Assembly: GCF_053078305.1 (NCBI RefSeq)
Contig: NZ_CP166879.1
DNA: 64,000 nucleotides
Strand: one strand, 5' to 3'
The number at the start of each line of letters is the position of its first letter. Position 1 is the first letter of the stretch. The notes beneath the pieces are model-generated. The model was given only the letters and a program-made list of their open reading frames with translations, was not told the DNA's origin and ran no database searches. Positions 13,050 through 40,737 of this stretch are shown piece by piece. The translations under genes were made by a program, and so were the position numbers.

Positions 13050-14298
13050 TGTTAGCCTCCACATGCGTCATTGCTGCTGTCGTTTTACGATTCAAAATCG
13101 GGTTAAGGATCAGATAGCTCAGCGCGCCACCTAATACCGCGTTGACCGGAACAATTCCCGGTAACCAGTGGCCTGCAGCAATCCCCAAGGCGACCGCCAG
13201 AATCGCCACCCAATTGACACTCATCATACGCGTGGTCGCAAAGTGCTCATAGCGGCGACGGTTCATCAGATAGTCGGCAATGATCACGCCACCCACCGGA
13301 GGAATAGCTGCCGAAAGGAAGGTCAACCAGCCGACAAAATTGTTATACAGCCATAATGCGCAGACCGTACCGATAATACCGTTGATTACCGAAAGGGTTT
13401 TGCTCGACATACCGGTAATGTTGGCGAAACCTAAACCCGACGCATAGAGCGCGTTATCGTTGGTGGTCCAGATATTCAGTCCCAGCACCACAATCGCAGG
13501 CAGCAGCAGGCCCTGAGCAATCATCACATCAGAGATATCCGCCATGCCCAGTGCCGCAGCGCCCGCTGCACCGAAAATAAACATCAACGAGTTGCCGAGG
13601 AAAAAGGCCACCATCGCCACCAGTACCGCCAGTTTGGCATTGCGACCAAAGCGGACAAAGTCAGCGGTGAGCGTGCCCGCGCTGATAAATGACCCCACAA
13701 CCAGCGCCAGCGCGACATTGAAATCTAACGGTTGTGCGGGAACGACCGCTTTTAATGCGTCCAGGCCGCCCATGCCGTTAACAGCCAGCCACACGGAATA
13801 ACCGCCAAGGCAGGCGATAGCCGGAACCGCAATCACCGAAAGAACTGTCAGCGCCGAAATGCCAAAGAAGACGGTGACGGTCATCAGTAAACCGGAAACG
13901 GCAATCAGCAAATTAATATCCAGCCCGGTTGCCTTGCCCACCGGAATAGCAAACATCGCCACACCGACGCCAAACCAGCCAACCTGGGTGCCGCCCAGCA
14001 GCAGTGAAGGCAGCCATGAGCCTTTAACACCAAACGAGAAGCGAGCAAGAAGATGAGTGGTCAGGCCGGTTTTTGCGCCAATGTAACCGAGAAATGAAGT
14101 GTAAATACCGAGGAGAAGATTGCCGATGAGAACTGCGAGGAAGAAATCATGATAGCTAAGACCGGTTCCGAGAGTGCCGCCAGTCCACATACTGGCGGAA
14201 AAGAAGGTTAATCCCAGCATGACGAACGTCAATGCCAATACCCCTTTCCGCGCCGACTGCGGGACTGGCCCCTGGCTAAAGTTGTTATCTTGCGACAC
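13039..14298 (-). CDS. codB: Cytosine permease
   Basis: 419 aa membrane protein [33 protein letters not shown]...; upstream of codA in the same operon. Confidence 0.95.
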
Positions 14299-26334: not shown

Positions 26335-27321
26335 TTAAACCACCCGATCCAGCCCCAACATGCCGCGAGCCTGAATGAAACAAAGCAGCAACGTTCCCCA
26401 TAAGGCCATCGTCAGGTAGGGGCTTATACCGAGAATATTGAAGCCGCTTTCAATAATTTGCAGAAGAAACAGCGCCAACACCATACCAATTATCCGCCCG
26501 CTGCCGCCGTCCGGATTAACCCCGCCGAGTACTGCCGCGAGGATTGACACCAGCAAGTACGATTCGCCATAAGAGGCCTTAGCCGAGTTGAGTTTCGACA
26601 TCATCAAAAATGCCGCTACCGCACAAAGCAAGGCGGAAATGACATAAACCCAAATCAGCACCCGACGAGTGTTAATGCCGGAGTAAAGTGTTGCTCGTTC
26701 GTTAGACCCAATCAGGTAAATGGCTTTACCGAGCGGCGTTTTCTCCAGCAATACCCACAGCCCCAGTGCCACTGCGGCAAACAACCACATCGGTAGCGGA
26801 ATACCGAACCATTGCGCATGATTCAACCACAACACCCATGAGGGATAATTGGCAATGGCGCTACCGCCTGTCACCAGAATATTTATCCCTTTGAGCAACG
26901 TCATCATCCCAAGCGTTGCAAGAATTGGCGACACTCGAATACCAGCAATCAATACGCCGTTACATAAACCGATTATCACCGCCGCGCCAGCGCCCGCCAG
27001 TAACGTAGCGACAACCGTAGCAATACCCGGTGGATACTGAGTCGCCACCCACGCCATCACCAGTGAACAGGCGTTAGCAGTGGCTATAATTGACAAGTTA
27101 ATGCCACCGCAAAGCATGGTCACCGCCATAGCCAACGCCAGAATGCCCAGCACGGGCATTTGCGAAGCGACGGACTGGAAATTACTTATCGACCAGAAAA
27201 TCTCCGGCATAGTAATGCTGAACGCGGCAACAGTTAACACCAGCAGGCCGATCAAGTAAAACTCAACGTTATTACGCCACGATTTTTTCATAGCAGACTC
27301 CGGTTCTGATGCTGACTCCAC
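26335..27321 (-). CDS. Sugar ABC transporter permease (CUT2 family)
   Basis: 328 aa multi-pass membrane protein; overlaps the preceding permease gene; absent at this position in K-12. Confidence 0.85.
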   Translation of the reverse strand: MESASEPESAMKKSWRNNVEFYLIGLLVLTVAAFSITMPEIFWSISNFQSVASQMPVLGILALAMAVTMLCGGINLSIIATANACSLVMAWVATQYPPGIATVVATLLAGAGAAVIIGLCNGVLIAGIRVSPILATLGMMTLLKGINILVTGGSAIANYPSWVLWLNHAQWFGIPLPMWLFAAVALGLWVLLEKTPLGKAIYLIGSNERATLYSGINTRRVLIWVYVISALLCAVAAFLMMSKLNSAKASYGESYLLVSILAAVLGGVNPDGGSGRIIGMVLALFLLQIIESGFNILGISPYLTMALWGTLLLCFIQARGMLGLDRVV

Positions 27322-28259
27322 GCCGTGGCACTAATGCTGGCAACGATGATGATGCCGGTGATCAATGTTTGCCAGTAAGACGAGACTCCCAATAAATTTA
27401 GCCCGTTTTGCATCACTGCCAACAACACCACGCCGAGCAAAGTACCGGTTAACGTGCCGCGCCCGCCGAGCAAACTAGTGCCGCCAAGCACCACCGCAGC
27501 CAGTACTGTCAGCTCATAACCCAGAAGAGAATCGGGGGCGACAGTCATCACCGTCCACGACTGCACTACACCCGCAGCGCCAGACATCAATCCCATATAG
27601 CCATAGACGAAAAGTTGCAGTTTCAGCACGCTAAAGCCGATGCGACTGGCTGATTCGCGGTTCCCGCCAAGGGCATAAATTTTGCGCCCTACACTGGTGA
27701 AATTCATGATAAACGCTGTTAGCAGCACCACCGTAATCATGGCGATCAGCGGCAGACCAAGGCCATAGTCATAGCCATCAGCATCGGTGTACTTGAACAA
27801 CATAACCCCCAGCTCAAACCACGGCGGAAAGTCGTACAGCCACACACCTTTACTCAACCATAACAGCAGGCCATAGAAAATATTCAGCGTCGAGATAGTG
27901 ATGATGATAGAAGGCACCCGTAGGCGATTAACCAGTAAGGCGTTAATTAAGCCAAGTAAAATGCCGATGCAGCCTGCCAGTGCAAACGCGACAGCGAAGT
28001 TGCCACCAATTTTTTGCAGCAACAGCACCATGCCGTATTGCGCAATGATGGTCATTGCTGGAAACGAAATATCAATTCCACCGGAAATCAACACCACAAA
28101 CAAACCACAGGCGAGAATAGTCAACATGGCATAGTTATTGGCGAGATCGTACAAATTACCGAATGTCAGAAACTCGTCGCTGCGCCAGGCAAGGCCAACA
28201 AACAGCACCACAATCAGTAATGCCAGCCAGAATTCATGGCGTTTTTTCAGTTCAGCCAT
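27288..28259 (-). CDS. Sugar ABC transporter permease (CUT2 family)
   Basis: 323 aa multi-pass membrane protein; overlaps the ATPase stop. Confidence 0.85.
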   Translation of the reverse strand: MAELKKRHEFWLALLIVVLFVGLAWRSDEFLTFGNLYDLANNYAMLTILACGLFVVLISGGIDISFPAMTIIAQYGMVLLLQKIGGNFAVAFALAGCIGILLGLINALLVNRLRVPSIIITISTLNIFYGLLLWLSKGVWLYDFPPWFELGVMLFKYTDADGYDYGLGLPLIAMITVVLLTAFIMNFTSVGRKIYALGGNRESASRIGFSVLKLQLFVYGYMGLMSGAAGVVQSWTVMTVAPDSLLGYELTVLAAVVLGGTSLLGGRGTLTGTLLGVVLLAVMQNGLNLLGVSSYWQTLITGIIIVASISATAWSQHQNRSLL

Positions 28260-29736
28260 TTACCACCTCCGCAATCCTGGCCTGAGAACTGCTGTCAGGC
28301 AGGAAGCTATGGGTGATCTGACCTTTTTGCATTACCAAAATCCGGTGGCTTTGATACCACGCTTCTTCAATTTCATCGCAGATCATCAATACCGCAATGC
28401 CATGAGCCGCCAGATCGCTGATAATGCCGTATATTCCTGCTTTGTTGGCGATATCAACACCGACTGTCGGGCTATCGAGAATCAACAGTCGTGGCCCAAT
28501 CGCCAGCCATTTGGCGATCGATACTCGCTGCGCGTTACCACCAGAAAGCGTATTCACCGGGAGATGAGGATCAGAGACTTTGATGGTCAATGCCTTGATT
28601 AGCCTGTCCACCAGGTCACGCACTTTAGCTTCACTCAGAAAGCCGAAGCGATCTTTTACCTTGTGAAAAACAGTGCTAATGATGTTGTCTTCAATAGATT
28701 GCGCCATCACCAAACCGCGCGACATGCGATCTTCCGAAACATAACCAATACCGTGGCGGATGGCGTCCTGGTTACTATGCAGTGTAACCGGCTGGCCGTT
28801 GATGAGGATCTCGCCAGCATCCGGTCGGGTCATACCAAAGAGACTCAGACATAATTCCGTGCGCCCCGCACCAAGCAGGCCAACAATCGATACCACTTCG
28901 CCCGCTTCCACCCGCAAGTTAATATTTAGATATTCCCCATGACGACTTAAATTACGCACCTCCAGCACCGGGGTGCTGGATTTTCCCTGCCACAACTCTC
29001 GCACCTGATATTCAAACTCCTGGCCGGTCATCAGGAAACCGAGTTGTTTTGTGGTCATCTCTGCAGCCGGAAAAGTCCCGACCAGCTCACCATCTTTCAG
29101 CACTGAAATACGGTCGGAAACTTCCATCACTTCTTCCAGACGATGACTGACGAAGACCACGCAGATCCCGCGTTCACGCAATTGATGCACCACCTGTAAT
29201 AACCCTTGCACTTCCTGATGGGTCAGCGAAGCGGTTGGTTCATCCATCACGATCAACCGTGCGTCCTGCGCCAGTGCACGGCAAATAGCCACCAGCTGAC
29301 AGCGGGCAATTGAAAGCTCAGAAACGAGTGTATCCAGTGGCAATGTGACGTTAATACTGGTCATTGCCGCCTGCGCCACCTCACGCAGACGACGGCGGTT
29401 AACAAACAGACCGTGGTGATAGTGATTCACGGCGATATTCTCCCAGACACTCAGGTTAGGAAATAAAGAGAGGTCCTGATAAATCACCTGAATCCCCTGC
29501 GCCACCGAAGCGGCGGGTGTCAGCTTTGACCAGTTTTTCCCACCAAGCGTAATTTCCGCTCCCTCATCCGGGCGATAAACACCGGACATAATTTTAATCA
29601 ACGTCGATTTACCACAGCCGTTTTGCCCGGCAAGGCAGTGCACTTCACCCGACATAAAGTCGAGAGAAACATCGCGCAGCGCTCGCGTGGCATGAAACGT
29701 TTTGTTGATATGACGAAGGGAAAGGAAGGTTTCCAT
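28252..29736 (-). CDS. Sugar ABC transporter ATP-binding protein (two fused NBDs)
   Basis: Walker A GQNGCGKST and a second NBD (GLLGAGRTE); LSGGNAQR signature; start taken at ATG 29736 with AGGGGA upstream (track ORF starts at TTG 29751). Confidence 0.88.
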   Translation of the reverse strand: METFLSLRHINKTFHATRALRDVSLDFMSGEVHCLAGQNGCGKSTLIKIMSGVYRPDEGAEITLGGKNWSKLTPAASVAQGIQVIYQDLSLFPNLSVWENIAVNHYHHGLFVNRRRLREVAQAAMTSINVTLPLDTLVSELSIARCQLVAICRALAQDARLIVMDEPTASLTHQEVQGLLQVVHQLRERGICVVFVSHRLEEVMEVSDRISVLKDGELVGTFPAAEMTTKQLGFLMTGQEFEYQVRELWQGKSSTPVLEVRNLSRHGEYLNINLRVEAGEVVSIVGLLGAGRTELCLSLFGMTRPDAGEILINGQPVTLHSNQDAIRHGIGYVSEDRMSRGLVMAQSIEDNIISTVFHKVKDRFGFLSEAKVRDLVDRLIKALTIKVSDPHLPVNTLSGGNAQRVSIAKWLAIGPRLLILDSPTVGVDIANKAGIYGIISDLAAHGIAVLMICDEIEEAWYQSHRILVMQKGQITHSFLPDSSSQARIAEVVNG

Positions 29737-29784
29737 AACATCCCCTGGCAATAAGAATCGGGGCTTTCGCCCCGAAGAAATGGA

Positions 29785-30771
29785 TTAATAAAGTGAGTCG
29801 ATATTGTCTTTGTTGACCAGTAATACCTTATGGAAACGGATAATTCGCTTATCCATATCTACGTCGGCCTTACCCAGATTCTGCATTTCTAATCCAGGTT
29901 TGATCTCTTCACCCTTCAGCAACGTGCTGGCGACGGCTGCGAGTGCGTAACCTGCAGAGGCCGGATCGTAAGTAATCCCTTCGGTGATATCACCACTTTT
30001 AATCAGTGATGCCGCCTGTGAAGGGATCATCATGCCATAGACTGCGACTTTATTTTTCGCCCGTTTCTCTTTCACCGCACGTCCCGCGCCAATCGGACCG
30101 TTTGAACCAAAGGAGACAACCGCTTTCAAGTCAGGATAGGTTTTCATCAGGTCCAGTGTAGTACGACGTGAGTCATTCACACTCTCGGCAACCGGCATGC
30201 GGCGGGTAACTTCATGCATATCCGGGTAATGCTCTTTCTGGTATTTCACCAGCAAGTCAGCCCATAAGTTATGCTGCGGCACGGTCAAACTACCCACGTA
30301 AATCACATAGCCGCCCTTGCCACCCATGCGTTTCGCCATATGCTCAACATATTCAGCGGCAAATTTTTCGTTATCAATGATTTCGATATCCCAGTTAGCA
30401 CTTGGCTGACCGGGGGATTCGTTGGTCAGAACCACAATTCCGGCATCTCGCGCTTTTTTGAATACCGGTTCCAGCACGTTGGCATCGTTTGGCACGATAG
30501 TAATTGCATTAACCTTACGGGCGATTAAATCCTCAATAATTTTAACTTGTTGCGGAGCATCAGTACTTGAAGGCCCCACCTGTGAGGCATTAACACCAAA
30601 GGCTTTACCCGCCTCAACCACACCTTCGCCCATGCGATTAAACCACGGCATACCATCGACTTTAGAAATATTCACCACGACTTTTTCCGCTGCCTGGAGC
30701 GGCGCAGAAATTAGCGCAGCGCCTAATAACAGCGAAGACACCATATTGATAACAAAACGTTTATTCATCAT
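29785..30771 (-). CDS. Periplasmic sugar-binding protein (RbsB/YtfQ-like)
   Basis: 328 aa with signal peptide MMNKRFVINMVSSLLLGAALISAPLQA; periplasmic binding protein type I fold. Confidence 0.85.
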   Translation of the reverse strand: MMNKRFVINMVSSLLLGAALISAPLQAAEKVVVNISKVDGMPWFNRMGEGVVEAGKAFGVNASQVGPSSTDAPQQVKIIEDLIARKVNAITIVPNDANVLEPVFKKARDAGIVVLTNESPGQPSANWDIEIIDNEKFAAEYVEHMAKRMGGKGGYVIYVGSLTVPQHNLWADLLVKYQKEHYPDMHEVTRRMPVAESVNDSRRTTLDLMKTYPDLKAVVSFGSNGPIGAGRAVKEKRAKNKVAVYGMMIPSQAASLIKSGDITEGITYDPASAGYALAAVASTLLKGEEIKPGLEMQNLGKADVDMDKRIIRFHKVLLVNKDNIDSLY

Positions 30772-31021
30772 TTCAGCCTCATTGCAGGGTAGTCAGGAAG
30801 TGTTCGCCCAAATTAGCGCGCTGGAGAGAATGAGAATTTTCGAATATTTTTATGCAGAATAAACAGCTCTATTTCAGGCAGCTATTAAAAATATGGTTAT
30901 AAATATGGACAAAACGGGCAGCAATAATAAGTGTGACATTCATCACGTAAAAAATAGCAAAATAAACAAAATTAGCGATATTTTATGTTTGTGAGCTTAT
31001 TTCGTGTAGATAAATAGTTAT

Positions 31022-31432
31022 CTACACAACGTCAATAAGGGCATATTCTTCAAAGATAACGTCCATTTCTGGTGAATAGCTTCCTTCTGCCTGGAAAAAA
31101 CGACGGTGTTCATTACGCCAATATTCAAGACTGAGGTCACCTTCACCTTCCTTACGGGCAAGCTCCGCGGTGACATCAGAAAAGCGCAGTAAATGCAGGC
31201 CAATCACTCTGATAACACATACAGGCTCACCACGGCTATTTTCTACAATCTTATACTCACCAATCATCGGAAATGCGTTGTCTTCAATACATCCCGCCAG
31301 CGAACCACAGGAAGCTGTTTTAACACCAGTCGCAATCAACGTTGCGAGGTGATCGGCCAACGCGGCTGAATCGCCAAAAGTACAAAAGGAAGCATGGGGA
31401 TATTTTTGTGAGAATTTTTCTTTTATGGTCAT
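31022..31432 (-). CDS. ASCH-domain (PUA-like) protein
   Basis: MTIKEKFSQKYPHASFCTFGDSAALADHLATLIATGVKTASCGS... resembles ASCH/YqfB-type domains; start uncertain (ATG 31432 or TTG 31462). Confidence 0.6.
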   Translation of the reverse strand: MTIKEKFSQKYPHASFCTFGDSAALADHLATLIATGVKTASCGSLAGCIEDNAFPMIGEYKIVENSRGEPVCVIRVIGLHLLRFSDVTAELARKEGEGDLSLEYWRNEHRRFFQAEGSYSPEMDVIFEEYALIDVV

Positions 31433-31730
31433 GGCAATATTTTTGCGATTACGGAAAAACAAATCACATCTTAATTACTGTTGGTAACCATCAGCAAGAG
31501 TATCATTGGTTTTTCGATACTGAATCTTTTTTATCCGAAGCAGGTCACATTTATGGCCTGATAAATACCTTTGTTAAAACTCACTTTTGTGTATTTCTCT
31601 CAAATAATCCCCTGGAAATTATGCCGGGAGATTATAAAGTTCAGGATCATTCATTAGCAAACCATTCCCGCCCCACTCCCTGGGGCTTAAATCTCTTACT
31701 ATTCACCGTTGCAGGCGTTTCAAATGCGCA

Positions 31731-33113
31731 TCAACCTGCCACACTCCCCCACACCAGTTGCCCTTTATGGAACGTTGCGGTTCTCGGCGAGATACGCGCC
31801 ACCGCCTCGGCGGAACAGGAGGCGTCCACCAGCACAAAGCTGGCGTCATCCTGCGCTTTTGGCCATACACGCTCGCCTTTTTCATTCAGCGGCAATACAT
31901 CGCCAGTGGCTAGAAACAGCGAACGGGAGAGGTTCTGTTCGTTAGGACGAATATAGAGCTGCGCGTAGAGATTGGCTTTTTCCAGCATGTCGCCCAGACC
32001 ATAAGGCGACCAGTGGTCGATAACGCTGTCAGTGCCAGTCATCACTTTTACGCCTTTGTCGTGCAACTGTTTGAGCGGCATATGCAGCGTGCCAATCGGC
32101 ACTGTCGAGGCGATAGAAATTTGCTGCACCGCCATCCGGTGCGCCAGTTCATCTACCTGTTGTTCGTTGAGCGTTGCCAGCGCAAAGGCGTGACTGATGG
32201 TCAGCTTGCCCTTCAGCTGTGGCGTTTTCTCTACCGTTTCAACCATATAATTGATGGCCGCCACGCCTGCCGGAGTGGTTTCGTGCAGGTGAATATCGAC
32301 GCCTTTGTCGTAGTCCATCGCAATCTGAAACATGGTGTCGAGGGATTTTTCCATCGCGCCATCAACACTGGTCGGGTCCAGGCCGCCGACATAATGCGCC
32401 CCCGCCTGCATCGCTTCACGCATCAAAGGTTCAGATTTCGACAGTAGCAAACCGTGCTGCGGGAAGGCGACGATTTCACACTCAAAGCCCGCCTGACGTC
32501 GCGCCAGCACCGCCTGCAAATTTTGCAGATTTTTCAGGCCGGAAACCGGTTCGATATTGCAGTGGCTGCGGGCAATGGTGGTGCCTTTCGACTGCAATAA
32601 ATCAATCAGTTTTTCTGCCCGCTCCTGAGTGTACGGTTGCAGCTCCGGCAGCATTTTCTGCTCGAGTTTGATCATGTCCTGGATGGTGGTGCCTGCCGGG
32701 CGATTGAGCGAGCGCCACGGCCCGCCGTAAAAGGTTTTGTCGAGATGAATATGCATGTCGCGGGTGGTGGGCAGCATCAGCTTATCGCCAGCGTCATAGT
32801 GCGGCAGCGTGGCACCCGGGTGCTGCTTATTCTCGCGCAGTGCGACAATTTTGCCGTTCTGAATCTCCACGGTCTGGCGCGCCGTGCGGGTCTGCACCGC
32901 CACGCCATTTTCGTAGTCAAATCCAGTTTCCAGCAGCACGTTGTCGAGATAGTAATGCGGGTCAGTGATTTTCATGGTGTTGTTCGCTTCGCAGTTTGTG
33001 GTGCCAGAGACCGCCGCATGGGCGAGCGGCACAGAGGTACCAAACAGCGCGGCGGCGGTGACCATCTTACCGCTCTGGCTCAGAAATTCACGGCGGCTAT
33101 TGCTTTCTTTCAT
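31731..33113 (-). CDS. yahJ: Amidohydrolase-family deaminase
   Basis: 460 aa with Tat-like signal (SRREFLSQSGKMVTAAALFG); metal-dependent hydrolase motifs (HIHLD). Confidence 0.9.
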   Translation of the reverse strand: MKESNSRREFLSQSGKMVTAAALFGTSVPLAHAAVSGTTNCEANNTMKITDPHYYLDNVLLETGFDYENGVAVQTRTARQTVEIQNGKIVALRENKQHPGATLPHYDAGDKLMLPTTRDMHIHLDKTFYGGPWRSLNRPAGTTIQDMIKLEQKMLPELQPYTQERAEKLIDLLQSKGTTIARSHCNIEPVSGLKNLQNLQAVLARRQAGFECEIVAFPQHGLLLSKSEPLMREAMQAGAHYVGGLDPTSVDGAMEKSLDTMFQIAMDYDKGVDIHLHETTPAGVAAINYMVETVEKTPQLKGKLTISHAFALATLNEQQVDELAHRMAVQQISIASTVPIGTLHMPLKQLHDKGVKVMTGTDSVIDHWSPYGLGDMLEKANLYAQLYIRPNEQNLSRSLFLATGDVLPLNEKGERVWPKAQDDASFVLVDASCSAEAVARISPRTATFHKGQLVWGSVAG

Positions 33114-33122
33114 CTTACGTCC

Positions 33123-34073
33123 TTACGTTTTAATAATATGGGTGCCCGTTTCGCCACGCAGCGCCGCGGGCAGGCATTCCGGCGTGGTGATAATCACTTC
33201 TTTACCGCCCTGTTCCAGGAACGTCAGGCTGGCGATGATTTTTGGCAACATGCTGCCGGGCGGGAAATGTCCTTCCTGCATATAGCGAGTCATGGTGGCA
33301 ATATCCACCCGATCGAGCGCCTGCTGCTCGGGTTTGCCAAAATGAATACACACTTTTTCCACGCCGGTGGTGATCACCAGAATGTCGGCGTGAATTTCAC
33401 GGGCCAGCAGCGCGGTAGAGAGATCTTTGTCGATAACCGCGTCCACGCTTTGGTAATCTCCCGCGTCAGTACGCACCACAGGAATTCCGCCGCCGCCCGC
33501 GCCAATCACCACAAAGCCTTGTTGGATCAGCGCCTTAATGGCAGGTGCTTCGACAATACGTTTCGGTTCCGGCGAGGCGACCACGCGGCGATAGCCCCGT
33601 CCGGCATCTTCAACAAAACGCCAGTCAGGGTTTGCCTTTTGTAGTTCGTCACGCTGGCTGTCACTAAAGAATGCGCCGATGGGCTTGGTGGGATGGGCAA
33701 ATCCCGGATCGTTTTTATCCACTTCCACCTGAGTCACCACGGTGACGGCTTTTTTCTCGCCGTGACGCGCCAGTCGGTTGTTCAGCGCCTGTTGGATCAG
33801 ATAGCCAATGCCGCCTTGCGTATCCGCTACACAGTTCGCCAGCGGCGTTAATGGCAGCCCTTCGCGCTCGTGGGCAATCTCCGCACGGCGTAAATCCAGC
33901 CCGACCTGCGGCCCGTTGCCGTGGGTCAGCACAATGTCGTAATCGGAAGCCAGCATTTCCAGCACCGTATCGGCGACGGCTTTCACCGCCTCCGCCTGAT
34001 GCTCAATCGACTGGCTGGCATTATCTTTGATAATGCTGTTGCCACCAATGGCAACGACCACAAGCTCTTTCAT
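33123..34073 (-). CDS. yahI: Carbamate kinase-like protein
   Basis: 316 aa; MKELVVVAIGGNSI... amino acid kinase fold; GGGIPV motif. Confidence 0.92.
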   Translation of the reverse strand: MKELVVVAIGGNSIIKDNASQSIEHQAEAVKAVADTVLEMLASDYDIVLTHGNGPQVGLDLRRAEIAHEREGLPLTPLANCVADTQGGIGYLIQQALNNRLARHGEKKAVTVVTQVEVDKNDPGFAHPTKPIGAFFSDSQRDELQKANPDWRFVEDAGRGYRRVVASPEPKRIVEAPAIKALIQQGFVVIGAGGGGIPVVRTDAGDYQSVDAVIDKDLSTALLAREIHADILVITTGVEKVCIHFGKPEQQALDRVDIATMTRYMQEGHFPPGSMLPKIIASLTFLEQGGKEVIITTPECLPAALRGETGTHIIKT

Positions 34074-34111
34074 GTTGTTATGTCCGCTACAGAGGGTGAT
34101 GAGGTTATGAC

Positions 34112-34486
34112 CAACGCCAGACTGCCTGATGCGCTACGCTTATCAGGCCTACAATTCTCGCGCCACTCGTAGGCCGGATAAGGCGTCCACGCCGCATCCG
34201 GCAATGGTGACAAATGCCTGATGCGCTACGCTTATCAGGCCTACAAATTCTCGTGCCATTCGTGGGCCGGATAAGGCGTTCACGCCGCATCCGGCAATGG
34301 TGACAAATGCCTGATGCGCTACGCTTATCAGGCCTACAGATTCTTGCGCCATTCGTAGGCCGGATAAGGCATTCACGCCGCATCCGGCAATGGTGACAAA
34401 TGCCTGATGCGCTACGCTTATCAGGCCTACAAATTCTTGCGCCACTTGTAGGCCGGATAAGGCGTTCACGCCGCATCCGGCATGAA
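34112..34486. repeat. Tandem REP/BIME cluster (about 4 units)
   Basis: Repeated gcctgatgcgctacgcttatcaggcctaca...gtaggccggataaggcgttcacgccgcatccggca between yahI and yahG. Confidence 0.9.
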
Positions 34487-34494
34487 CATGTAGG

Positions 34495-35913
34495 TCAGAC
34501 GCCGTAACGTTCGCACCAGCCGAGAATGGCTTTCTCGAAGCAGGCGAATGGTGGATGCACAATGCCCGCGCCAATCATGCCGACGCCCGCATCTTTATGG
34601 GCGATGGCGGTGTTGATCACTGGCAGAATGCCGCTGCTACCCACGCGGGTGATGTCGATTGCCGACGGCACGCCCATAAAACCGAGCAGCGGAATGGTGA
34701 CGTTGGGGTTTTCGCCAAGGGTGATTTCACGCATCTGGCGGGAGAAATCGATAGCCTCTTCCACCGAGCCACCCACCAGCGCGACGATTGCAGGTGCGGT
34801 CGCCATGGCAAACCCGCCAATACCGTAGGTTTCTGTGATGGCGCTGTCGCCGATATCCAGCCCCGAATCTTCCGGCTTATAACCAGCAAACATCGGGCCG
34901 ATCACCTGCTGCGCTGGGCCGGTAAACCAATGCCCCGGCAGGCCGCTGACCCGCAGGCCGAACTCGACGCCGTTACGCGCCATGGTGGTAACGACGGTGC
35001 TGTATTCGATGCCGTGCGCCGCATCCATCGCCGCTTTACACATCGCCATCCACGTCGGGCCGGAGAAGTAGTCGCTGCTGGCGACAAACTCAAACACTTC
35101 GCGCTGTTGCTCGACGGAGTAGCCCGCCTGAATAATCCCCGGCGTCAGCGCCTGAATCAGCAGCGTCGTCCCGGCGTTATTGCGGTTATGGCACTCATCG
35201 CCCATATGCAGCGCCTGCGCCAGCATTAAGCGCAGATCGATCTCGCCGATAATTTTCATCGCGTCGCGCAGTATTGGTCCCTGCACATCACGCATCCAGT
35301 TCAGGCGGTCAATCACGCTCTGGTCGTTAGCGCCCATACGCAAAATCTTCGCCATCTGCTCGCTCATGTTGGTATAAGCGATGTTGCCGTAGGTTTTGTT
35401 TTTTACGATGTGCATAAACATCGAGGCCGAGGTAACACCCGCCATCGATCCCACGCAGTCGTGCTCGTGACACGGCGAGAAGGTGATCTCCCCGGAAGCC
35501 GCCAGTTCAGCCGCCTCGTCGAGATCTTTCGCCAGTCCTTCGAACACCAGCGCTCCGGTGACCGCGCCTTTCATCGCGCCGCACATTTTTTCCCAGGTGA
35601 TCGGCGGCCCGGCGTGAAGAATGGTTTTCGGCGTCATGCCCGGCACCACGTTAATCGCCTGATCAAAACCAATTAGCACCGGATGCGACTGGATAATGCG
35701 TTCCAGCGCCTGCTGGTTAGCGGCGGCGATTTTGTCTGCCAGCGGCGAATCGGCAATGTTATCCAGCGCCTGCACCACCTGCATATTGCCCTGCCCCGGC
35801 GGCGTCCAGTCGAGTTGAGTCACTTCTACATGCTGCTTTTTCAGGTCATCGCTAAACATGGCGATGCCGACGTTAATAACGTTCAATGGTTGGCTAAACA
35901 GTGACTGGCTCAT
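34495..35913 (-). CDS. yahG: DUF1116-family protein (YlbE paralogue)
   Basis: 472 aa; size and position match yahG. Confidence 0.88.
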   Translation of the reverse strand: MSQSLFSQPLNVINVGIAMFSDDLKKQHVEVTQLDWTPPGQGNMQVVQALDNIADSPLADKIAAANQQALERIIQSHPVLIGFDQAINVVPGMTPKTILHAGPPITWEKMCGAMKGAVTGALVFEGLAKDLDEAAELAASGEITFSPCHEHDCVGSMAGVTSASMFMHIVKNKTYGNIAYTNMSEQMAKILRMGANDQSVIDRLNWMRDVQGPILRDAMKIIGEIDLRLMLAQALHMGDECHNRNNAGTTLLIQALTPGIIQAGYSVEQQREVFEFVASSDYFSGPTWMAMCKAAMDAAHGIEYSTVVTTMARNGVEFGLRVSGLPGHWFTGPAQQVIGPMFAGYKPEDSGLDIGDSAITETYGIGGFAMATAPAIVALVGGSVEEAIDFSRQMREITLGENPNVTIPLLGFMGVPSAIDITRVGSSGILPVINTAIAHKDAGVGMIGAGIVHPPFACFEKAILGWCERYGV

Positions 35914-37460
35914 CAGGCTTCCTCCCCTTTGCAGATAAATTCACGCGCCAGCAATCCGGTATTGGTGCTGCTGCTCGCCAGAATCACTCCGGCATCAAGC
36001 AGCATCTGGCTTTGTTGTTCTAACGATGGCGTATCAAGATCGGTACCCAGCACATAGGCGAGAATGATCAACTCGCGTCCTTCGGCAGCGGCGATCGCTT
36101 TCGCTTCTTTGATCGCCTCGATGGTGGAGCCGACCGGATCTTCATGCGATCCAAATCCGAGCACAAAATCCATCACGATCACCGCCACTTCTGGATCGCG
36201 CGCCTCTTCGATCAAGCGACTGATGCGGTTGGTGGGGTCAATCATTGGATGCGGCTTGCCGTTGGTGAAGTCGTCATCGCCAAAGTCGAGGAAGGTGTGT
36301 TTGATGCTGCGGTTGATATCTTTCAGGCGGAATTCCGGATCGGGCTGAATGTTGCTGTAGACATCGCCATGTTTTTCCATCACCGCGAACATGGTTTCGT
36401 CGCACAACGTGCCGCCGCAGAACAGGCCACGAATGTATTTCTGCTGCGGTTGCAGACGCGCACGCACATCCGCAATCAACGGCTGGTTAAGCGTATGCAG
36501 GTCGAGATTTTCCTGTTTCACGCCGGAGAGCATCACCGCTTTTAGCGCCGCTTCTTTGGTGCCGCGAGCAAACTGTAGCCCCTGCTCGTCAACCGGCGTT
36601 TCGCCACGACCGAGGAAGCAGACCACCACCGGCTTGCGGCAGGCGCGGGCGCGTTCCAGCACTTTACGGGCCACCGCAGGCGCGGGAGGTTTTGAAATCA
36701 GCGCGATAATTTCAGTTTGCGGATCGTTTTCCAGCATCCCGATGGCGTCGAGCATCATCAGGCCGCCGATTTTCTCGCTCAGGTCGCGCCCGCCGGTGCC
36801 GATGAGTTGCGAAACGCCGCCACCAAATTCATGAATGCGGACGCTCAGCTCCTGGCTGCCGGTGCCGGATGCGCCAACAATACCGATGTTGCCGCGACGC
36901 ACGGCATTACCAAAACAGAGCGCCGCGCCGTTGATAATCGCCGTGCCACAGTCTGGCCCCATCATCAGCAGCCCTTTTTCGTGGGCCAACTGTTTGAGCG
37001 CCAGTTCATCTTCAACCGAGACGTTATCGGAAAACAGCATCACGTTAAGATCGTTTTGCAGCGCCTGACGCGCTTCGCGCGCGGCAAACAGACCGTTGAC
37101 CGAAATCACCGCCAGGTTACTTTCCGGGATATGCTTTTTGGCGCTGGCAATAGTGGCGTAACGCGCCTCGTGCGAGCCGCTTTGCGCTTTGGTGTTGAAC
37201 AGTTCTTCAATCTCCACCAGCAACTGCTCGTTGTCCGCCCCCGATTTACCATTGATGACAATCATCAGGTCGCCGTTTTTCGCCTGCTCCAGCTCCGGCG
37301 TCAGCAGTCCTAAATTTTTCAGCACACCTTTGTTCATTTCGGTCGCCATCGCCACAAATGCCTGCTCGACGCCGTCGAGTTTATTTGCACGCGTGGAGAT
37401 AGACATCAGCGAGACAGAATCAAAATAGGTATTCGGTTTAATGACTATTTTAACTGACAT
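35913..37460 (-). CDS. yahF: FdrA-like acyl-CoA synthetase (NDP-forming) family protein
   Basis: 515 aa; CoA-ligase/succinyl-CoA synthetase-like fold. Confidence 0.88.
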   Translation of the reverse strand: MSVKIVIKPNTYFDSVSLMSISTRANKLDGVEQAFVAMATEMNKGVLKNLGLLTPELEQAKNGDLMIVINGKSGADNEQLLVEIEELFNTKAQSGSHEARYATIASAKKHIPESNLAVISVNGLFAAREARQALQNDLNVMLFSDNVSVEDELALKQLAHEKGLLMMGPDCGTAIINGAALCFGNAVRRGNIGIVGASGTGSQELSVRIHEFGGGVSQLIGTGGRDLSEKIGGLMMLDAIGMLENDPQTEIIALISKPPAPAVARKVLERARACRKPVVVCFLGRGETPVDEQGLQFARGTKEAALKAVMLSGVKQENLDLHTLNQPLIADVRARLQPQQKYIRGLFCGGTLCDETMFAVMEKHGDVYSNIQPDPEFRLKDINRSIKHTFLDFGDDDFTNGKPHPMIDPTNRISRLIEEARDPEVAVIVMDFVLGFGSHEDPVGSTIEAIKEAKAIAAAEGRELIILAYVLGTDLDTPSLEQQSQMLLDAGVILASSSTNTGLLAREFICKGEEA

Positions 37461-38313
37461 AATTCCCTCCGTAGGTTTGGCTCAGCGCACAACCATCGGC
37501 CATGCCATACAGCATGTCGCAGCCGGAACTGGAGCCAATATGTTTAATTTTTTCTATTGCCTGAGTTGCGTTCCCAGGGATGTCATAAATAATGTTGTGA
37601 ATAAAACGATGAATATTTTCCCGGCAGCGTTGTTGTAATGCGGCTTCCAGCGTTATGGCACTTAATAACGTGGTATTATTTCTGCCGCGTTGCAAGCCGA
37701 GATAAAATTCCTCTTTGTATTTTCCCGCCGGATGCCCGGAAATAAATAAAATAAGTGCCAGACCTGTTAAATAATCATCGGCTGATGGCGTAAGGCCAAT
37801 CCCTAAGCCCATCATACTGGCGACCGCTGAGGCGATATTTTGTTTATCGATTACTGCCTGTATAACTGCCCGTCGTTTAATATGTAATTCTTTATTTAAC
37901 GCCTGATAAAACGGATTATCGCCGCGATAATTAAACAGGGTTTCATTTTCCCCCAGGTGCTGATGAATGATGTCGTGCCACTGTTGCCAGGCGATAAGGC
38001 GAAAATTCACAGCGGTCATTTGCAAGGTTGGGGACAGCCAACGCCGACAACGACTCATCTCTATATGAAGATGTTGACCAACCGTAATACCTTGATCGTC
38101 AAACTGAACCTTATCACCATGCCGGAACAGATCATCAAAGTGAGTGAGTGCCAACCGACAACTGTTTGGCGCATTGTCGTACTCTTCACAAAGCAGCGTC
38201 AGCAACTGCTGGCGAGCCGGGAGTGCGATATTTACCGCTCTGGCAAAGACCTGTTCAACCTGTCCTTGCCCCCGCTGCGCCAGAAAATCCGCATCCGCAG
38301 TTAGCGCCCACAC
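37450..38313 (-). CDS. yahE: DUF2877-family protein (YlbF paralogue)
   Basis: 287 aa; overlaps the yahF start. Confidence 0.85.
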   Translation of the reverse strand: MWALTADADFLAQRGQGQVEQVFARAVNIALPARQQLLTLLCEEYDNAPNSCRLALTHFDDLFRHGDKVQFDDQGITVGQHLHIEMSRCRRWLSPTLQMTAVNFRLIAWQQWHDIIHQHLGENETLFNYRGDNPFYQALNKELHIKRRAVIQAVIDKQNIASAVASMMGLGIGLTPSADDYLTGLALILFISGHPAGKYKEEFYLGLQRGRNNTTLLSAITLEAALQQRCRENIHRFIHNIIYDIPGNATQAIEKIKHIGSSSGCDMLYGMADGCALSQTYGGNYVS

Positions 38314-38352
38314 ACACCGTTTTTCAGGTGTGTTGATAGCAAGCCTCCCGGT

Positions 38353-38958
38353 TTATGCACCTGCGGCAATCAGTAACTGCGCAATCTCTTCAAAGCCCCG
38401 TTCCCGCGCCAGTTCCAGCGGCGTTTTGCCATATTTATCCGTCATGTGCGGGCTGGCCCCGTGTTCCAGCAATAACTGCACAATCGCCTGCTGTTTAATC
38501 CCGCCATCATTAAGCACAATCGCTTCCAGCAGCGGCGTCCAGCCTACATGGTTGGTCTGGTTAACGTTAATTTCCGTATGCGCCAAAAGCTCTTTTACAA
38601 TACTTAAATGGCCTTTTTCACAGGCAGGCGTCAGGCCGACACCGCCAAAACGGGTTACGCAATTAAGATCGGGTTTAGCCGGTAAAATAATTCGTAGTAG
38701 CGTTAAATCATCGTTCAGACAGCTAATTAAAAAAGGATTTAAACAGGTATGATCTTGCTTATTAATATCCGCTCCGGCGTCAATTAATGCCTGAACGCAA
38801 GCATATTGCTGATATAAACTTGCCAGCGTAATTGCCGTTTTCCCCTGACGATCGTAGGTATTAATATCGACACCCAGCGCAAGGCAGGTTTTTACTTTAT
38901 CGATATCACCCTGTTGTGCAGCCAATAAATAGTCGGCAGGTAGATTTTTTATACTCAT
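38353..38958 (-). CDS. yahD: Ankyrin-repeat protein
   Basis: 201 aa with repeated ankyrin motifs (GKTPLELA, GWTPLLEAI, GADINKQD). Confidence 0.9.
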   Translation of the reverse strand: MSIKNLPADYLLAAQQGDIDKVKTCLALGVDINTYDRQGKTAITLASLYQQYACVQALIDAGADINKQDHTCLNPFLISCLNDDLTLLRIILPAKPDLNCVTRFGGVGLTPACEKGHLSIVKELLAHTEINVNQTNHVGWTPLLEAIVLNDGGIKQQAIVQLLLEHGASPHMTDKYGKTPLELARERGFEEIAQLLIAAGA

Positions 38959-39215
38959 TCACATTCCCCTGGTTTTTGTGGCTGTTTTCGATGAATTGAG
39001 AATAGCAACGATAATCTGATAAAAGAACCCGCTTAAATTTAATTCGCCGTATTTCGCCTTTTTGTTGAATGATGTTCAACAATCTTTTCGCAGTGTGCGG
39101 TAGTGCAATATTTGTTTCTTTGACCCGATACCCTTTCACTCAATCAGGTTTTATTTCTCTATAGTCTGCACATGTAAGAGTAGCTTTCGTCCATGTCTAA
39201 CCAGAGGGGAACAAG

Positions 39216-39713
39216 ATGAACGGACTCACGGCAACGGGTGTCACCGTCGGTATTTGTGCAGGGCTTTGGCAGTTAGTGTCTTCACATGTCGGGCTCTCTC
39301 AGGGATGGGAATTATTAGGAACCATTGGCTTCGTCGCCTTTTGCAGTTTTTATGCCGCAGGCGGCGGTAAATCGGGGTTTATCAGAAGTCTGGCGGTTAA
39401 TTATTCCGGGATGGTGTGGGCGTTTTTCGCCGCGCTGGCTGCTGGTTGGCTGGCCTCTGTAAGTGGACTGTCCGCGTTCTGGGCGAGCGTAATTACTACC
39501 GTACCCTTCTCGGCGGTGGTGGTCTGGCAAGGGCGTTTCTGGTTACTGTCATTTATTCCCGGTGGCTTTCTCGGCATGACGCTGTTTTTTGCCAGCGGGA
39601 TGAACTGGACGGTGACATTACTGGGTTTTCTGGCGGGTAACTGCGTGGGGATAATTTCAGAATATGGTGGACAAAAATTAAGCGAAGCGACGACTAAACG
39701 CGACGGGTATTAA
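39216..39713 (+). CDS. yahC: Inner membrane protein
   Basis: 165 aa multi-pass hydrophobic ORF. Confidence 0.85.
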   Translation: MNGLTATGVTVGICAGLWQLVSSHVGLSQGWELLGTIGFVAFCSFYAAGGGKSGFIRSLAVNYSGMVWAFFAALAAGWLASVSGLSAFWASVITTVPFSAVVVWQGRFWLLSFIPGGFLGMTLFFASGMNWTVTLLGFLAGNCVGIISEYGGQKLSEATTKRDGY

Positions 39714-39804
39714 AAGTTATTCAAAAATGATTATCTATCTTTAACCGATACCTCTACAGTCATAGCTGGAGAAATTCATAGTAGATAATGGCGGGAATGG
39801 TTTA

Positions 39805-40737
39805 ATGAACTCAATTTTTACCGAAGAGAATCTGTTGGCATTTACTACCGCTGCGCGTTTTGGCAGTTTCAGTAAAGCCGCAGAAGAGTTGGGTTTAACC
39901 ACTTCCGCCATTAGCTACACCATCAAGCGAATGGAAACAGGGCTGGATGTGGTGCTGTTCACTCGCAGTACCCGAAGCATTGAGTTAACGGAGTCCGGAC
40001 GTTATTTTTTCCGCAAAGCTACCGACCTGCTGAATGATTTTCACGCCATCAAACGTAGCATTGATACTATTTCGCAGGGCATAGAAGCACGGGTTCGCAT
40101 TTGTATTAACCAGCTACTTTATACGCCTAAACACACCGCGCGCTTATTGCAGATACTGAAAAAGCAATTTCCTACCTGCCAGATTACCGTCACCACCGAA
40201 GTGTATAACGGCGTCTGGGATGCGATTATTAATAATCAGGCGAATATCGCTATTGGCGCGCCCGACACGCTGCTGGACGGCGGCGGCATTGATTACACGG
40301 AGATTGGCGCGATTCGCTGGGCCTTTGCCATCGCCCCGGATCACCCATTAGCCTATGTGCCGGAGCCGATCGCCGAAAGCCAGCTGCGTCTCTACCCTAA
40401 TATCATGGTGGAGGACACCGCGCATACGATTAATAAAAAAGTGGGCTGGTTGCTGCATGGGCAGGAGTCAATTCTGGTGCCAGATTTCAACACCAAATGT
40501 CAGTGCCAGATTTTAGGTGAAGGGATTGGTTTTTTGCCGGATTACATGGTCCGTGAGGCGATGACGCAATCCCTGCTGGTTACCCGACAAATTCATAATC
40601 CGCGCCAGGATTCGCGCATGTTACTGGCGACTCAGCATTCTGCTACGGGTCAGGTGACGCAGTGGATTAAAAAACAATTTGCGCCAAATGGCATATTGAC
40701 GGGGATCTATCAGGATTTACTGCATCGGGAGAATTAA
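39805..40737 (+). CDS. yahB: LysR-family transcriptional regulator
   Basis: 310 aa; N-terminal LysR HTH (FTTAARFGSFSKAAEELGLTTSAISYTIKRME). Confidence 0.9.
   Translation: MNSIFTEENLLAFTTAARFGSFSKAAEELGLTTSAISYTIKRMETGLDVVLFTRSTRSIELTESGRYFFRKATDLLNDFHAIKRSIDTISQGIEARVRICINQLLYTPKHTARLLQILKKQFPTCQITVTTEVYNGVWDAIINNQANIAIGAPDTLLDGGGIDYTEIGAIRWAFAIAPDHPLAYVPEPIAESQLRLYPNIMVEDTAHTINKKVGWLLHGQESILVPDFNTKCQCQILGEGIGFLPDYMVREAMTQSLLVTRQIHNPRQDSRMLLATQHSATGQVTQWIKKQFAPNGILTGIYQDLLHREN

Follow-up and report, generated by a model that had tools for sequence, protein, structure and literature searches.

The yah cluster of Escherichia coli, a distinct variant of the AllFGH and carbamate kinase system and a candidate cassette for the catabolism of a urea-like compound

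What is the task of the yah gene cluster of Escherichia coli, a block of y-ome genes present in the 64,000-nucleotide stretch of DNA analysed here (the window) and running there from yahJ to yahB? The region is E. coli chromosome, with 98-99% identity to annotated chromosomes bearing the same gene names, and a preliminary description of it had rightly called the cluster conserved and functionally unassigned: full-text literature searches retrieved no functional study of yah genes. Our analysis suggests that the cluster most likely splits a urea-like compound, with gain of ammonia and ATP. Specifically, yah is read as a catabolic cassette of a deaminase, a carbamoyl-phosphate-forming transferase and a carbamate kinase, acting on a substrate other than allantoin-derived oxalurate, and we put the probability of this reading at roughly 0.55. 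It is supported by the paralogy of five genes to the allantoin (all) system, the tight packing of the genes, a gene set that recurs across genomes, the common clade of the G subunits, a recurrent deaminase partner, the catalytic residue set of YahJ, a permease encoded in most of the loci, a mobile core cassette and the lack of oxamate in an allFGH deletion strain. The system can best be classed as a variant in its own right of the AllFGH and carbamate kinase kind, having its own ankyrin component, a predicted periplasmic deaminase and an ancestral permease.

The genes that make up the unit come first. The stretch outlined initially was yahJ to yahE at 31731-38313, and the open reading frames (ORFs) are found exactly there, all of them on the minus strand; that outline omitted, however, the conserved yahD and yahB as well as an array of repetitive extragenic palindromic (REP) units at the position of a permease gene. 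The unit is thus larger and comprises yahB and, divergent from it, yahD-yahE-yahF-yahG-(REP array)-yahI-yahJ. The conserved first operon gene, yahD (38353-38958, minus strand), encodes a cytoplasmic ankyrin-repeat protein. It is followed, also on the minus strand, by yahE (37450-38313) for an AllH-like (DUF2877) subunit, yahF (35913-37460) for an AllF/FdrA-like subunit related to the alpha subunit of succinyl-CoA synthetase, yahG (34495-35913) for an AllG-like (DUF1116) subunit, yahI (33123-34073) for a member of the carbamate kinase family and yahJ (31731-33113) for an amidohydrolase of the AtzC/CodA deaminase branch with a twin-arginine translocation (Tat) signal. Overlaps of 11 bp (yahE/yahF) and 1 bp (yahF/yahG) and a spacing of 9 bp between yahI and yahJ contrast with the 421-bp gap between yahG and yahI, in which the REP array, a bacterial interspersed mosaic element (BIME) of four units of ~93 bp formerly called 'yahH', is located at 34123-34482 without assigned strand. 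On the plus strand, yahC (39216-39713) encodes a small DUF1097 membrane protein and yahB (39805-40737) a LysR-type regulator that is a paralogue of AllS. The divergent intergenic region between yahC and yahD (38959-39215; 257 bp, AT-rich, unstranded) is the presumed control region. A scan of 30700-39900 for consensus promoters and terminators gave counts at or below the shuffled expectation and was uninformative, also for the yahC/yahD gap; minus-strand terminator-like sites were absent from the cluster in that same scan. In earlier work yahDEFGIJ was taken as a possible operon, and ribosome footprints were reported in enterohaemorrhagic E. coli (EHEC) over an ORF in the yahG-yahI gap, X002/yahH (PMC4765031).

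What enzymes do these genes encode? YahG matches PF06545 'AllG' (E=1e-88) and YahE matches PF11392 'AllH' (E=4.8e-28) in Pfam. YahF consists of CoA_binding and Ligase_CoA domains and scores 493 bits against the NCBIfam FdrA subfamily (cut-off 433), while YahI is an AA_kinase protein (PF00696) scoring 649 bits against the carbamate kinase subfamily PRK12352 (cut-off 266); with the ArcC equivalog model TIGR00746 it reaches 346.2 bits, slightly below the cut-off of 358.25. In BLASTP against the K-12 proteins, identity is 39% for YahF and AllF (E=4e-103), 45% for YahG and AllG (E=5e-120), 25% for YahE and AllH (E=3e-10) and 38% for YahI and AllK (E=2e-57), a likeness in sequence that is far beyond chance. 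The GGN, HGNGPQVG and DKD motifs of YahI align with those of AllK. YahB, built of HTH_1 and LysR_substrate domains, is 39% identical to AllS (E=3e-73), so that the regulators add a fifth pair of paralogues shared by yah and all. Among solved structures, the best match of YahF is 3dmy (FdrA; E=3e-83) and YahG matches PDB 3clq, an uncharacterised protein, from an Enterococcus-like contig (E=3.6e-196); relative to AllG, YahG has ~55 extra residues at its N-terminus. YahD, which matches Ank_2/Ank_4, carries no signal peptide, and export signals are absent from YahD-G and YahI altogether, as expected for cytoplasmic action. The families named in the preliminary description, with YahF as an FdrA paralogue, YahG as DUF1116 or YlbE-like, YahE as DUF2877 or YlbF-like, YahI as a carbamate kinase homologue and YahJ as an amidohydrolase, are all borne out by these matches and by those of YahJ given below.

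The domain make-up of YahF, with its likeness to the alpha subunit of succinyl-CoA synthetase, could also be taken at face value, the more so as the RefSeq name 'acyl-CoA synthetase FdrA' is still in use. YahF would then be a nucleoside diphosphate-forming acyl-CoA synthetase, the cluster would activate or cleave an acyl-CoA, and YahI would act on some other acyl phosphate. This appears very unlikely to us, seeing that AllF, the nearest relative to have been characterised, is part of a carbamoyltransferase, that an ATP-grasp beta subunit is not encoded nearby, that in the phmmer alignment YahF has a gap opposite the 'Ghagai' segment of 2yv2, the one with the catalytic phosphohistidine, and that YahI has kept the carbamate kinase motifs.

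The all counterpart provides the functional precedent. Its composition, still referred to as proposed for oxamate and carbamoyl transfer in the preliminary description, has since been shown experimentally, with biochemistry of AllFGH and AllK that dates from 2022-2024: AllF, AllG and AllH co-purified constitute the oxamic transcarbamylase, and oxamate production needs all three genes (PMC11326118); YbcF/AllK is a catabolic carbamate kinase (PMC9843812); and the allF operon is activated by AllS and ArcA (PMC12535856). The yah paralogues go unmentioned in the AllFGH and AllK papers. The resemblance of yah to all is nevertheless not new, for the names AllG and AllH are already present in Pfam and RefSeq, where YahE is labelled 'oxamate carbamoyltransferase subunit AllH family protein', YahG 'YlbE family protein' and YahF 'acyl-CoA synthetase FdrA'; to point it out is therefore to restate annotation and not a discovery. 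What the current study adds is the larger unit, its separate clade, the Tat deaminase, the lost permease and a plasmid-borne copy. Common to both systems are three non-classical transcarbamylase subunits, a carbamate kinase encoded next to them and LysR regulators that are related to each other. The genes are arranged as H-F-G...K in yah and as F-G-H-K in all, and yah is further distinguished by a conserved ankyrin protein, a deaminase with predicted export via Tat, an ancestral permease of its own, its own regulator YahB and the lack of a link to allD or allantoin genes. In K-12, the yah locus is ~200 kb away from the all locus, and its neighbours include no all genes.

Is yah, then, a second copy of the all enzyme? 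A scan with YahG over one genome per species gave 475 relatives, and the best 80 loci were compared by tblastn of the window proteins. All of these 80 belong to Enterobacterales, Aeromonas or Orbaceae, and have YahG 85-99% identical to that of the window; the syntenic set seen in the comparison is yahB-yahD-yahE-yahF-yahG-[X]-yahI-yahJ, where X stands for a membrane protein gene discussed below. Both yahB (74-98% identical, syntenic) and yahD are found in each locus that extends far enough upstream, YahD being 66-97% identical across the 80 loci. Within the species, 4623 of 5426 complete E. coli genomes contain at least 80% of an 8-kb query that encloses the cluster, nearly always at 95-99% nucleotide identity. 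YahG stands out as unusually conserved.

Farther away, AllH/AllF/AllG-like clusters also occur in Brevibacillus, Psychrobacillus, Paenibacillus, Oceanobacillus, Trichococcus and an Enterococcus-like contig, as well as in Bosea, Janthinobacterium and Pasteurella. Most of them come with a carbamate kinase, an ankyrin or ankyrin plus tetratricopeptide repeat (TPR) protein and a regulator of the PucR or LysR type, and individual genomes lack this or that member. The regulator is of the PucR type in Firmicutes and Bosea, and versions of YahD that combine ankyrin and TPR repeats are found in Bosea, Paenibacillus and Trichococcus; the E. coli YahD is 55% identical to its Brevibacillus homologue. When the E. 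coli proteins are compared with their Brevibacillus counterparts and with their all paralogues, identity is 77% versus only 45% (AllG) for YahG, 67% versus 38% (AllF) for YahF, and 59% versus 38% (AllK) for YahI. For the G subunit, an identity matrix and a neighbour-joining tree were made from 14 sequences, namely twelve from yah contexts, AllG and a protein from an island of avian pathogenic E. coli (APEC). The twelve share 64-90% mutual identity and at most 48% with AllG or the APEC island protein (46% for E. coli YahG and the latter), and the tree places the yah-context proteins, AllG and the island protein in separate groups. The yah group spans four classes, the Gamma-, Beta- and Alphaproteobacteria and the Bacilli, and the F and K proteins show the same clade pattern. 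By sequence, YahG stands closer to the yah-context proteins of other classes than to AllG. Judged from these comparisons, the yah type is an old, separately conserved sister clade of the AllFGH set and not a copy of it.

This result bears directly on the proposal that YahEFG and YahI represent a second, isofunctional pair of oxamic transcarbamylase and carbamate kinase, supplied with oxalurate from sources other than allantoin, such as oxidised purines or imported parabanic acid. The same three families together with a carbamate kinase and an AllS-like regulator speak for it, as does the SLC26-like fold of the ancestral permease, which would fit a small organic anion, for instance oxalurate. 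Still, we consider it unlikely. A separate clade that crosses phyla, with 64-90% identity inside and no more than 48% to AllG, is typical of distinct specificity; an allD-like dehydrogenase is not linked to the cluster; and the conserved ankyrin and deaminase partners lack a counterpart in the all system. Moreover, the allFGH deletion of strain MG1655 made zero oxamate from allantoin, although yahEFG is present in K-12 and was intact in the mutant. Taken together, the separate clade and the missing oxamate indicate that the yah substrate is probably not the oxalurate derived from allantoin.

Among the subunits, YahE is the fastest-evolving, with 35-64% identity across loci. In clusters of the Enterobacter type, YahE was not found down to E=10 within the ~20-kb loci, although its gene could lie elsewhere in those genomes. 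A yahD-yahF interval without yahE is seen in Enterobacter (L047:7649-8454; L numbers denote individual compared loci), Leclercia, Lelliottia, Silvania, Huaxiibacter and Aeromonas cavernicola.

The all system offers no model for YahJ. The protein is of the Amidohydro_1/3 type and scores 712 bits with PRK06846; its closest solved relatives are 6nbo (an uncharacterised 'N-isopropylammelide isopropylaminohydrolase'), the N-isopropylammelide isopropylaminohydrolase AtzC and the cytosine deaminase CodA, with the AtzC chains matched at E ~1e-29 and the same motifs aligned. When YahJ is aligned with CodA of the window (11766-13064) and with five homologues linked to such clusters, the metal ligands HxH, His of strand 5, His of strand 6 and Asp of strand 8 (H121, H123, H275, H308 and D362 in YahJ) are invariant, the HxxE/D proton-shuttle motif reads 'HLHE' in YahJ where CodA has 'HCDE', and Gln219 of YahJ, the equivalent of the substrate-anchoring Gln in the FPQEG motif of CodA, is invariant as well. 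YahJ thus has the mononuclear-metal ligands, the HxxE/D motif and the anchoring Gln of AtzC and CodA, while its identity to the CodA of the window is just 23% in the multiple alignment and it differs from both enzymes in its Tat signal and an N-terminal extension of ~60 residues. The N-terminus, MKESNSRREFLSQSGKMVTAAALFGTSVPLAHA↓A, is a textbook twin-arginine signal with SRREFL, a hydrophobic stretch and an AHA↓A cleavage site. The Tat motif is present in 74 of 74 YahJ orthologues (those of the 80 loci with a YahJ match) and also in the YahJ homologues of Pasteurella and Shinella; YahJ is, furthermore, listed as a Tat substrate in a study in which a yahJ deletion strain competed slightly less well in mice (competitive index 0.70, p=0.02; PMC7549933). 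With such a signal, YahJ is probably periplasmic and not found beside YahEFGI; most likely, YahJ acts in the periplasm and YahD-G together with YahI in the cytoplasm.

YahJ-like enzymes are also encoded in the clusters of Pasteurella, Bosea, Trichococcus (two) and Oceanobacillus (three); both Trichococcus copies start without a signal sequence. The Brevibacillus and Psychrobacillus clusters have, instead, an NCS1 permease and a small deaminase of the cytidine deaminase (CDA) fold. That two unrelated deaminase folds occupy the same position argues for deamination as a real step of the pathway.

How would the substrate reach the cytoplasmic enzymes? In 58 of the 80 loci, a polytopic membrane protein of 516-526 residues, here called X, is encoded between yahG and yahI (e.g., L023:11537-13087, L047:11422-13002 and L076:11675-13237). 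The X proteins of Citrobacter and Providencia are 85% identical, and identity to homologues from Firmicutes, Alpha- and Betaproteobacteria amounts to 65-81%. Searches with its sequence gave no match in Pfam, NCBIfam or the PDB, even at an E of 10. An AlphaFold model made with 26 homologues (predicted local distance difference test score, pLDDT, 81.8; predicted template modelling score, pTM, 0.80) shows the 7+7 fold of UraA and SLC26, and the best Foldseek matches (SLC26Dg, SVCT1, BicA, prestin, UraA, AZG1/2 and UapA) have about equal TM-scores of ~0.45-0.56. The modelled fold would suit a nucleobase carrier or a small-anion carrier alike, and since it separates neither class, the label 'xanthine permease' given in databases is not to be relied on and was not taken to mean a purine substrate; other database names for X are 'regulator' and 'hypothetical'. 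In the Bacilli, a different polytopic membrane protein of ~390 residues, without Pfam match, follows the AllG-like gene (L092:11198-12379; L093:11485-12669), the Enterococcus-like and Trichococcus copies being 68% identical to each other; Psychrobacillus and Oceanobacillus have a similar-sized protein at the same position (L100:11685-12848; L101:11489-12658) that is probably of the same type.

In the E. coli window, the position of X is taken by the four tandem REP units, and no remnant of X was found in the window. The permease gene has been lost in E. coli, with the REP array in its place; the REP content of the yahH region was also noted by others (PMC11551758, PMC4765031). X is likewise absent from Pseudocitrobacter, Kluyvera, Klebsiella, Raoultella and Citrobacter amalonaticus. 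The distribution of yahC is the reverse of that of X: yahC, identified as PF06496 (DUF1097; E=1.2e-26) with a hydrophobic, polytopic translation, occurs only in loci without X and X only in loci without yahC, a few loci at contig ends showing neither. The exchange of X for yahC may mean that one protein took over from the other in function, or it may go back to one event in the past.

Loss of the permease raises the question of whether the E. coli cluster is functional at all. One might regard it as a cryptic or decaying remnant that persists by inertia after the REP array replaced the permease: the permease and any trace of it are absent from the window and a BIME is in the gap, these are y-ome genes for which the searched literature gave no phenotype, and complete permease-bearing cassettes have been acquired separately on plasmids. 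We find this doubtful in view of the evidence for maintenance. All six ORFs are intact in the window, and the wide occurrence and high identity of the 8-kb segment among complete E. coli genomes, given above, are hardly those of a decaying locus. The permease-less variant with yahC is common to six lineages, and its YahG is 94-99% identical across these genera, which indicates purifying selection. The ribosome footprints on the gap ORF in EHEC and the mild defect of the yahJ deletion in mice count against a mere remnant as well.

From these elements, the following sequence of events can be proposed for a catabolic yah cassette. YahJ, exported in folded form via Tat, would remove an amino group hydrolytically from an amidine-type carbon in the periplasm; homology and catalytic residues point to a small nitrogen-rich compound as the target, probably a cytosine-, ammelide- or guanine-like heterocycle. 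The product would be imported, in most genera via the 516-residue permease X of the SLC26/NCS2 fold, in place of which E. coli has YahC; a role of YahC in import is a guess. By paralogy to AllFGH, YahE-YahF-YahG, probably together with YahD, would then transfer the terminal carbamoyl group of a ureide to phosphate and so form carbamoyl phosphate, from which YahI, as its kinase family and motifs suggest, would make ATP, ammonia and CO2 with ADP as the acceptor. YahB, the AllS-like LysR protein, would control the operon.

The proposed logic is familiar from the arginine and agmatine deiminase pathways, in which a deiminase is followed by ornithine or putrescine transcarbamylase and then by carbamate kinase. 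In those pathways as in the one suggested for yah, an imino or amino group is taken off, a ureide is phosphorolysed to carbamoyl phosphate, and ATP is formed via carbamate kinase. The yah system differs in having a three-subunit transferase of the AllFGH type in place of one with the aspartate/ornithine transcarbamylase (ATC/OTC) fold, in its predicted periplasmic deaminase of the amidohydrolase type and in the lack of an antiporter. A second point of reference is the E. coli pair of the transcarbamylase YgeW and the carbamate kinase YqeA, assigned to anaerobic purine and urate degradation (bioRxiv 10.1101/2025.04.24.650524; PMC12507026). There, too, a carbamate kinase paralogue is paired with a carbamoyltransferase for the catabolism of a heterocycle; YgeW, unlike YahEFG, is a classical single-gene enzyme of the ATC/OTC fold, encoded at a different locus and with different partners.

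Could the cassette run in the opposite, synthetic direction? YahI would then make carbamoyl phosphate from carbamate and ATP, and YahEFG would carbamoylate an imported amine or amide, for example to detoxify it or to modify it. Each of the two reactions can go either way, and the assay of AllFGH did start from carbamoyl phosphate and oxamate. The context of permeases, ammonia-releasing deaminases and PucR- or AllS-like regulators is, however, a catabolic one, and neither an exporter nor a biosynthetic partner is conserved with the cassette, which makes the synthetic direction highly improbable in our estimation.

Several points weigh against the catabolic pathway as we propose it. Each of its steps rests on homology and gene context. 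A ring-opening hydrolase is not conserved in the core, so that a heterocycle deaminase would not obviously yield the terminal ureido group needed by the transferase. The Janthinobacterium cluster and a plasmid-borne cassette described below have no YahJ, and in the Enterococcus-like and Trichococcus loci no carbamate kinase came up within 10 kb. Clusters of the Enterobacter type do without YahE, whereas full AllFGH activity needs AllH. The fold of X does not tell a nucleobase carrier from a small-anion carrier, and the permease-less version of E. coli may be crippled. Lastly, the failure of yahEFG to compensate for the allFGH deletion could arise from yah not being expressed in that setting.

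For the substrate, a number of specific candidates were considered, comprising creatinine or N-methylhydantoin, ammelide or cyanuric acid, cytosine or uracil, guanine or xanthine, and oxalylguanidine. None of them was adopted, as the ring-opening step is not encoded in the conserved core. A bolder extension of the catabolic interpretation, which we offer as tentative and think less probable than its negation, would see in the yah-type cassette, with its variable deaminase, a widespread, undescribed and ATP-yielding 'ureide fermentation' of a class of compounds so far unconnected with enzymes of the AllFGH type, with YahD as an obligatory fourth subunit, distributed from Bacilli to Enterobacterales and spread by conjugative plasmids. 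In that extension, the substrate may be, for example, an acyl-urea such as allophanate, biuret, ureidoacrylate or ureidomalonate derived from amino-pyrimidines or triazines, and the chromosomal copy of E. coli may be a permease-less variant that relies on periplasmic YahJ and another carrier.

Is a complete, permease-bearing version accessible to E. coli? Of 5426 E. coli genomes, 142 carry the gene for X, in most cases on a plasmid. It is part of a mobile cassette flanked by insertion sequences (IS), with the content LysR-ankyrin-AllH-FdrA-YlbE-X-carbamate kinase and without yahJ, as found on the IncFII plasmid p24A16CRGN010_A (L097:4107-12540) and also on the chromosome of strain TUM9803 (L098). 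Its proteins are closest to the Citrobacter type. At 99% identity or more, the cassette occurs in 70 mostly conjugative plasmids of PLSDB, from E. coli and Klebsiella pneumoniae. Because it holds nothing besides the LysR regulator, the ankyrin protein, the H, F and G subunits, X and the carbamate kinase, this core of regulator, ankyrin, H-F-G, permease and kinase is suggested to be a self-sufficient unit. As a separate observation, a trio of nucleoside hydrolase, LacI regulator and major facilitator superfamily (MFS) transporter is encoded just downstream of yahJ in Providencia rettgeri (L076:15843-19348), and a related trio (57-82% identical) is found next to the mobile cassette on the chromosome of an E. 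coli strain (L098:15169-18699).

A third kind of cassette is found in an island of extraintestinal pathogenic E. coli (ExPEC) and APEC next to tkt1 (PMC3349570; GR29 in PMC12928451). It encodes a LysR regulator, a cytosine-type NCS1 permease, an 'allophanate hydrolase-related' protein, a carbamate kinase, DUF1116, FdrA and DUF2877 proteins and a cysteine hydrolase, and it is about equally distant from yah and all (40-42% identity for F, 46-48% for G and 39-48% for K). With yah it shares the set of LysR, DUF2877, FdrA, DUF1116 and carbamate kinase; it differs in its cysteine hydrolase of the isochorismatase type and its NCS1 permease, and in having neither an ankyrin protein nor a deaminase of the YahJ type. 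A counterpart of YahD is thus absent from the all cluster and the APEC island cassette alike. The regulators YahB (39805-40737), AllS (L003:296-1222) and the APEC LysR protein (L096:2797-3702) are mutual paralogues with 33-39% identity, so that the regulator was part of the duplicated unit. The E. coli pan-genome accordingly holds three old paralogous cassettes of LysR, H, F, G and carbamate kinase, and the different accessory enzymes of the three indicate different substrates.

If the proposed role of yah is true, about seven K-12 genes (yahB-yahJ) would gain a concrete function, and the transcarbamylases of the AllFGH type would make up a family with more than one specificity, represented by all, yah and the ExPEC island, instead of a one-off enzyme of allantoin utilization. 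ATP formation linked to carbamoyl phosphate is a useful source of energy and nitrogen for bacteria of the gut and the urinary tract that live without oxygen. The complete cassette is carried, moreover, on large conjugative plasmids of isolates from poultry, pigs and humans. To the specialist the finding will come as no surprise; it does provide a clear hypothesis for a block of y-ome genes.

It remains to consider the genes downstream of yahJ, which the preliminary description had drawn into the picture as an extra transporter. Such a transporter is indeed next to the cluster, and K-12 is without it: the spacing between yahJ and yahK in K-12 is just 377 bp, where the window carries an ASCH-domain gene and a four-gene ATP-binding cassette (ABC) transporter (26335-31432). 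The ASCH-domain gene (31022-31432, minus; PF04266) is absent from K-12. The transporter is of the CUT2 type (26335-30771, minus) and consists of a binding protein (29785-30771, minus; Peripla_BP_4, LsrB/RhaS-like but below the equivalog cut-offs), an ATPase (28252-29751, minus) and two permeases (27288-28259 and 26335-27321, both minus). No tie to the cluster was found. The block, present in 2212 of 5426 E. coli genomes (41%), is separated from yahJ by a gap of ~270 bp with a promoter-like site (10/12 positions) upstream of the ASCH gene at 31660-31631, and in none of the 80 other species does it adjoin the yah cluster. A Providencia stuartii orthologue, with a binding protein 79% identical, is directly downstream of codB-codA (L094:7034-14485), and the Yersinia orthologue of the transporter stands alone. 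We therefore rejected a role of the ABC transporter in the yah system, given that it is never adjacent in the 80 other species and has its orthologues elsewhere. A tie to cytosine chemistry through the ASCH protein as a YqfB-like N4-acetylcytidine amidohydrolase was likewise dropped, in this case for want of detectable similarity to YqfB. The ASCH and ABC block is probably an unrelated accessory insertion that is not part of the system and does not travel with it in other genera.

Two minor observations concern the same part of the window. The G+C content is mosaic, with 55-58% over yahF-yahJ (32000-37000), ~48% over yahD/yahE (37000-39000) and ~45% around the ASCH gene (30000-32000). The ABC block is repeatedly found beside genes of the CodA family, yahJ here and codBA in Providencia, which we note as a curiosity only; the codBA genes of the window itself are located at 11766-14298.

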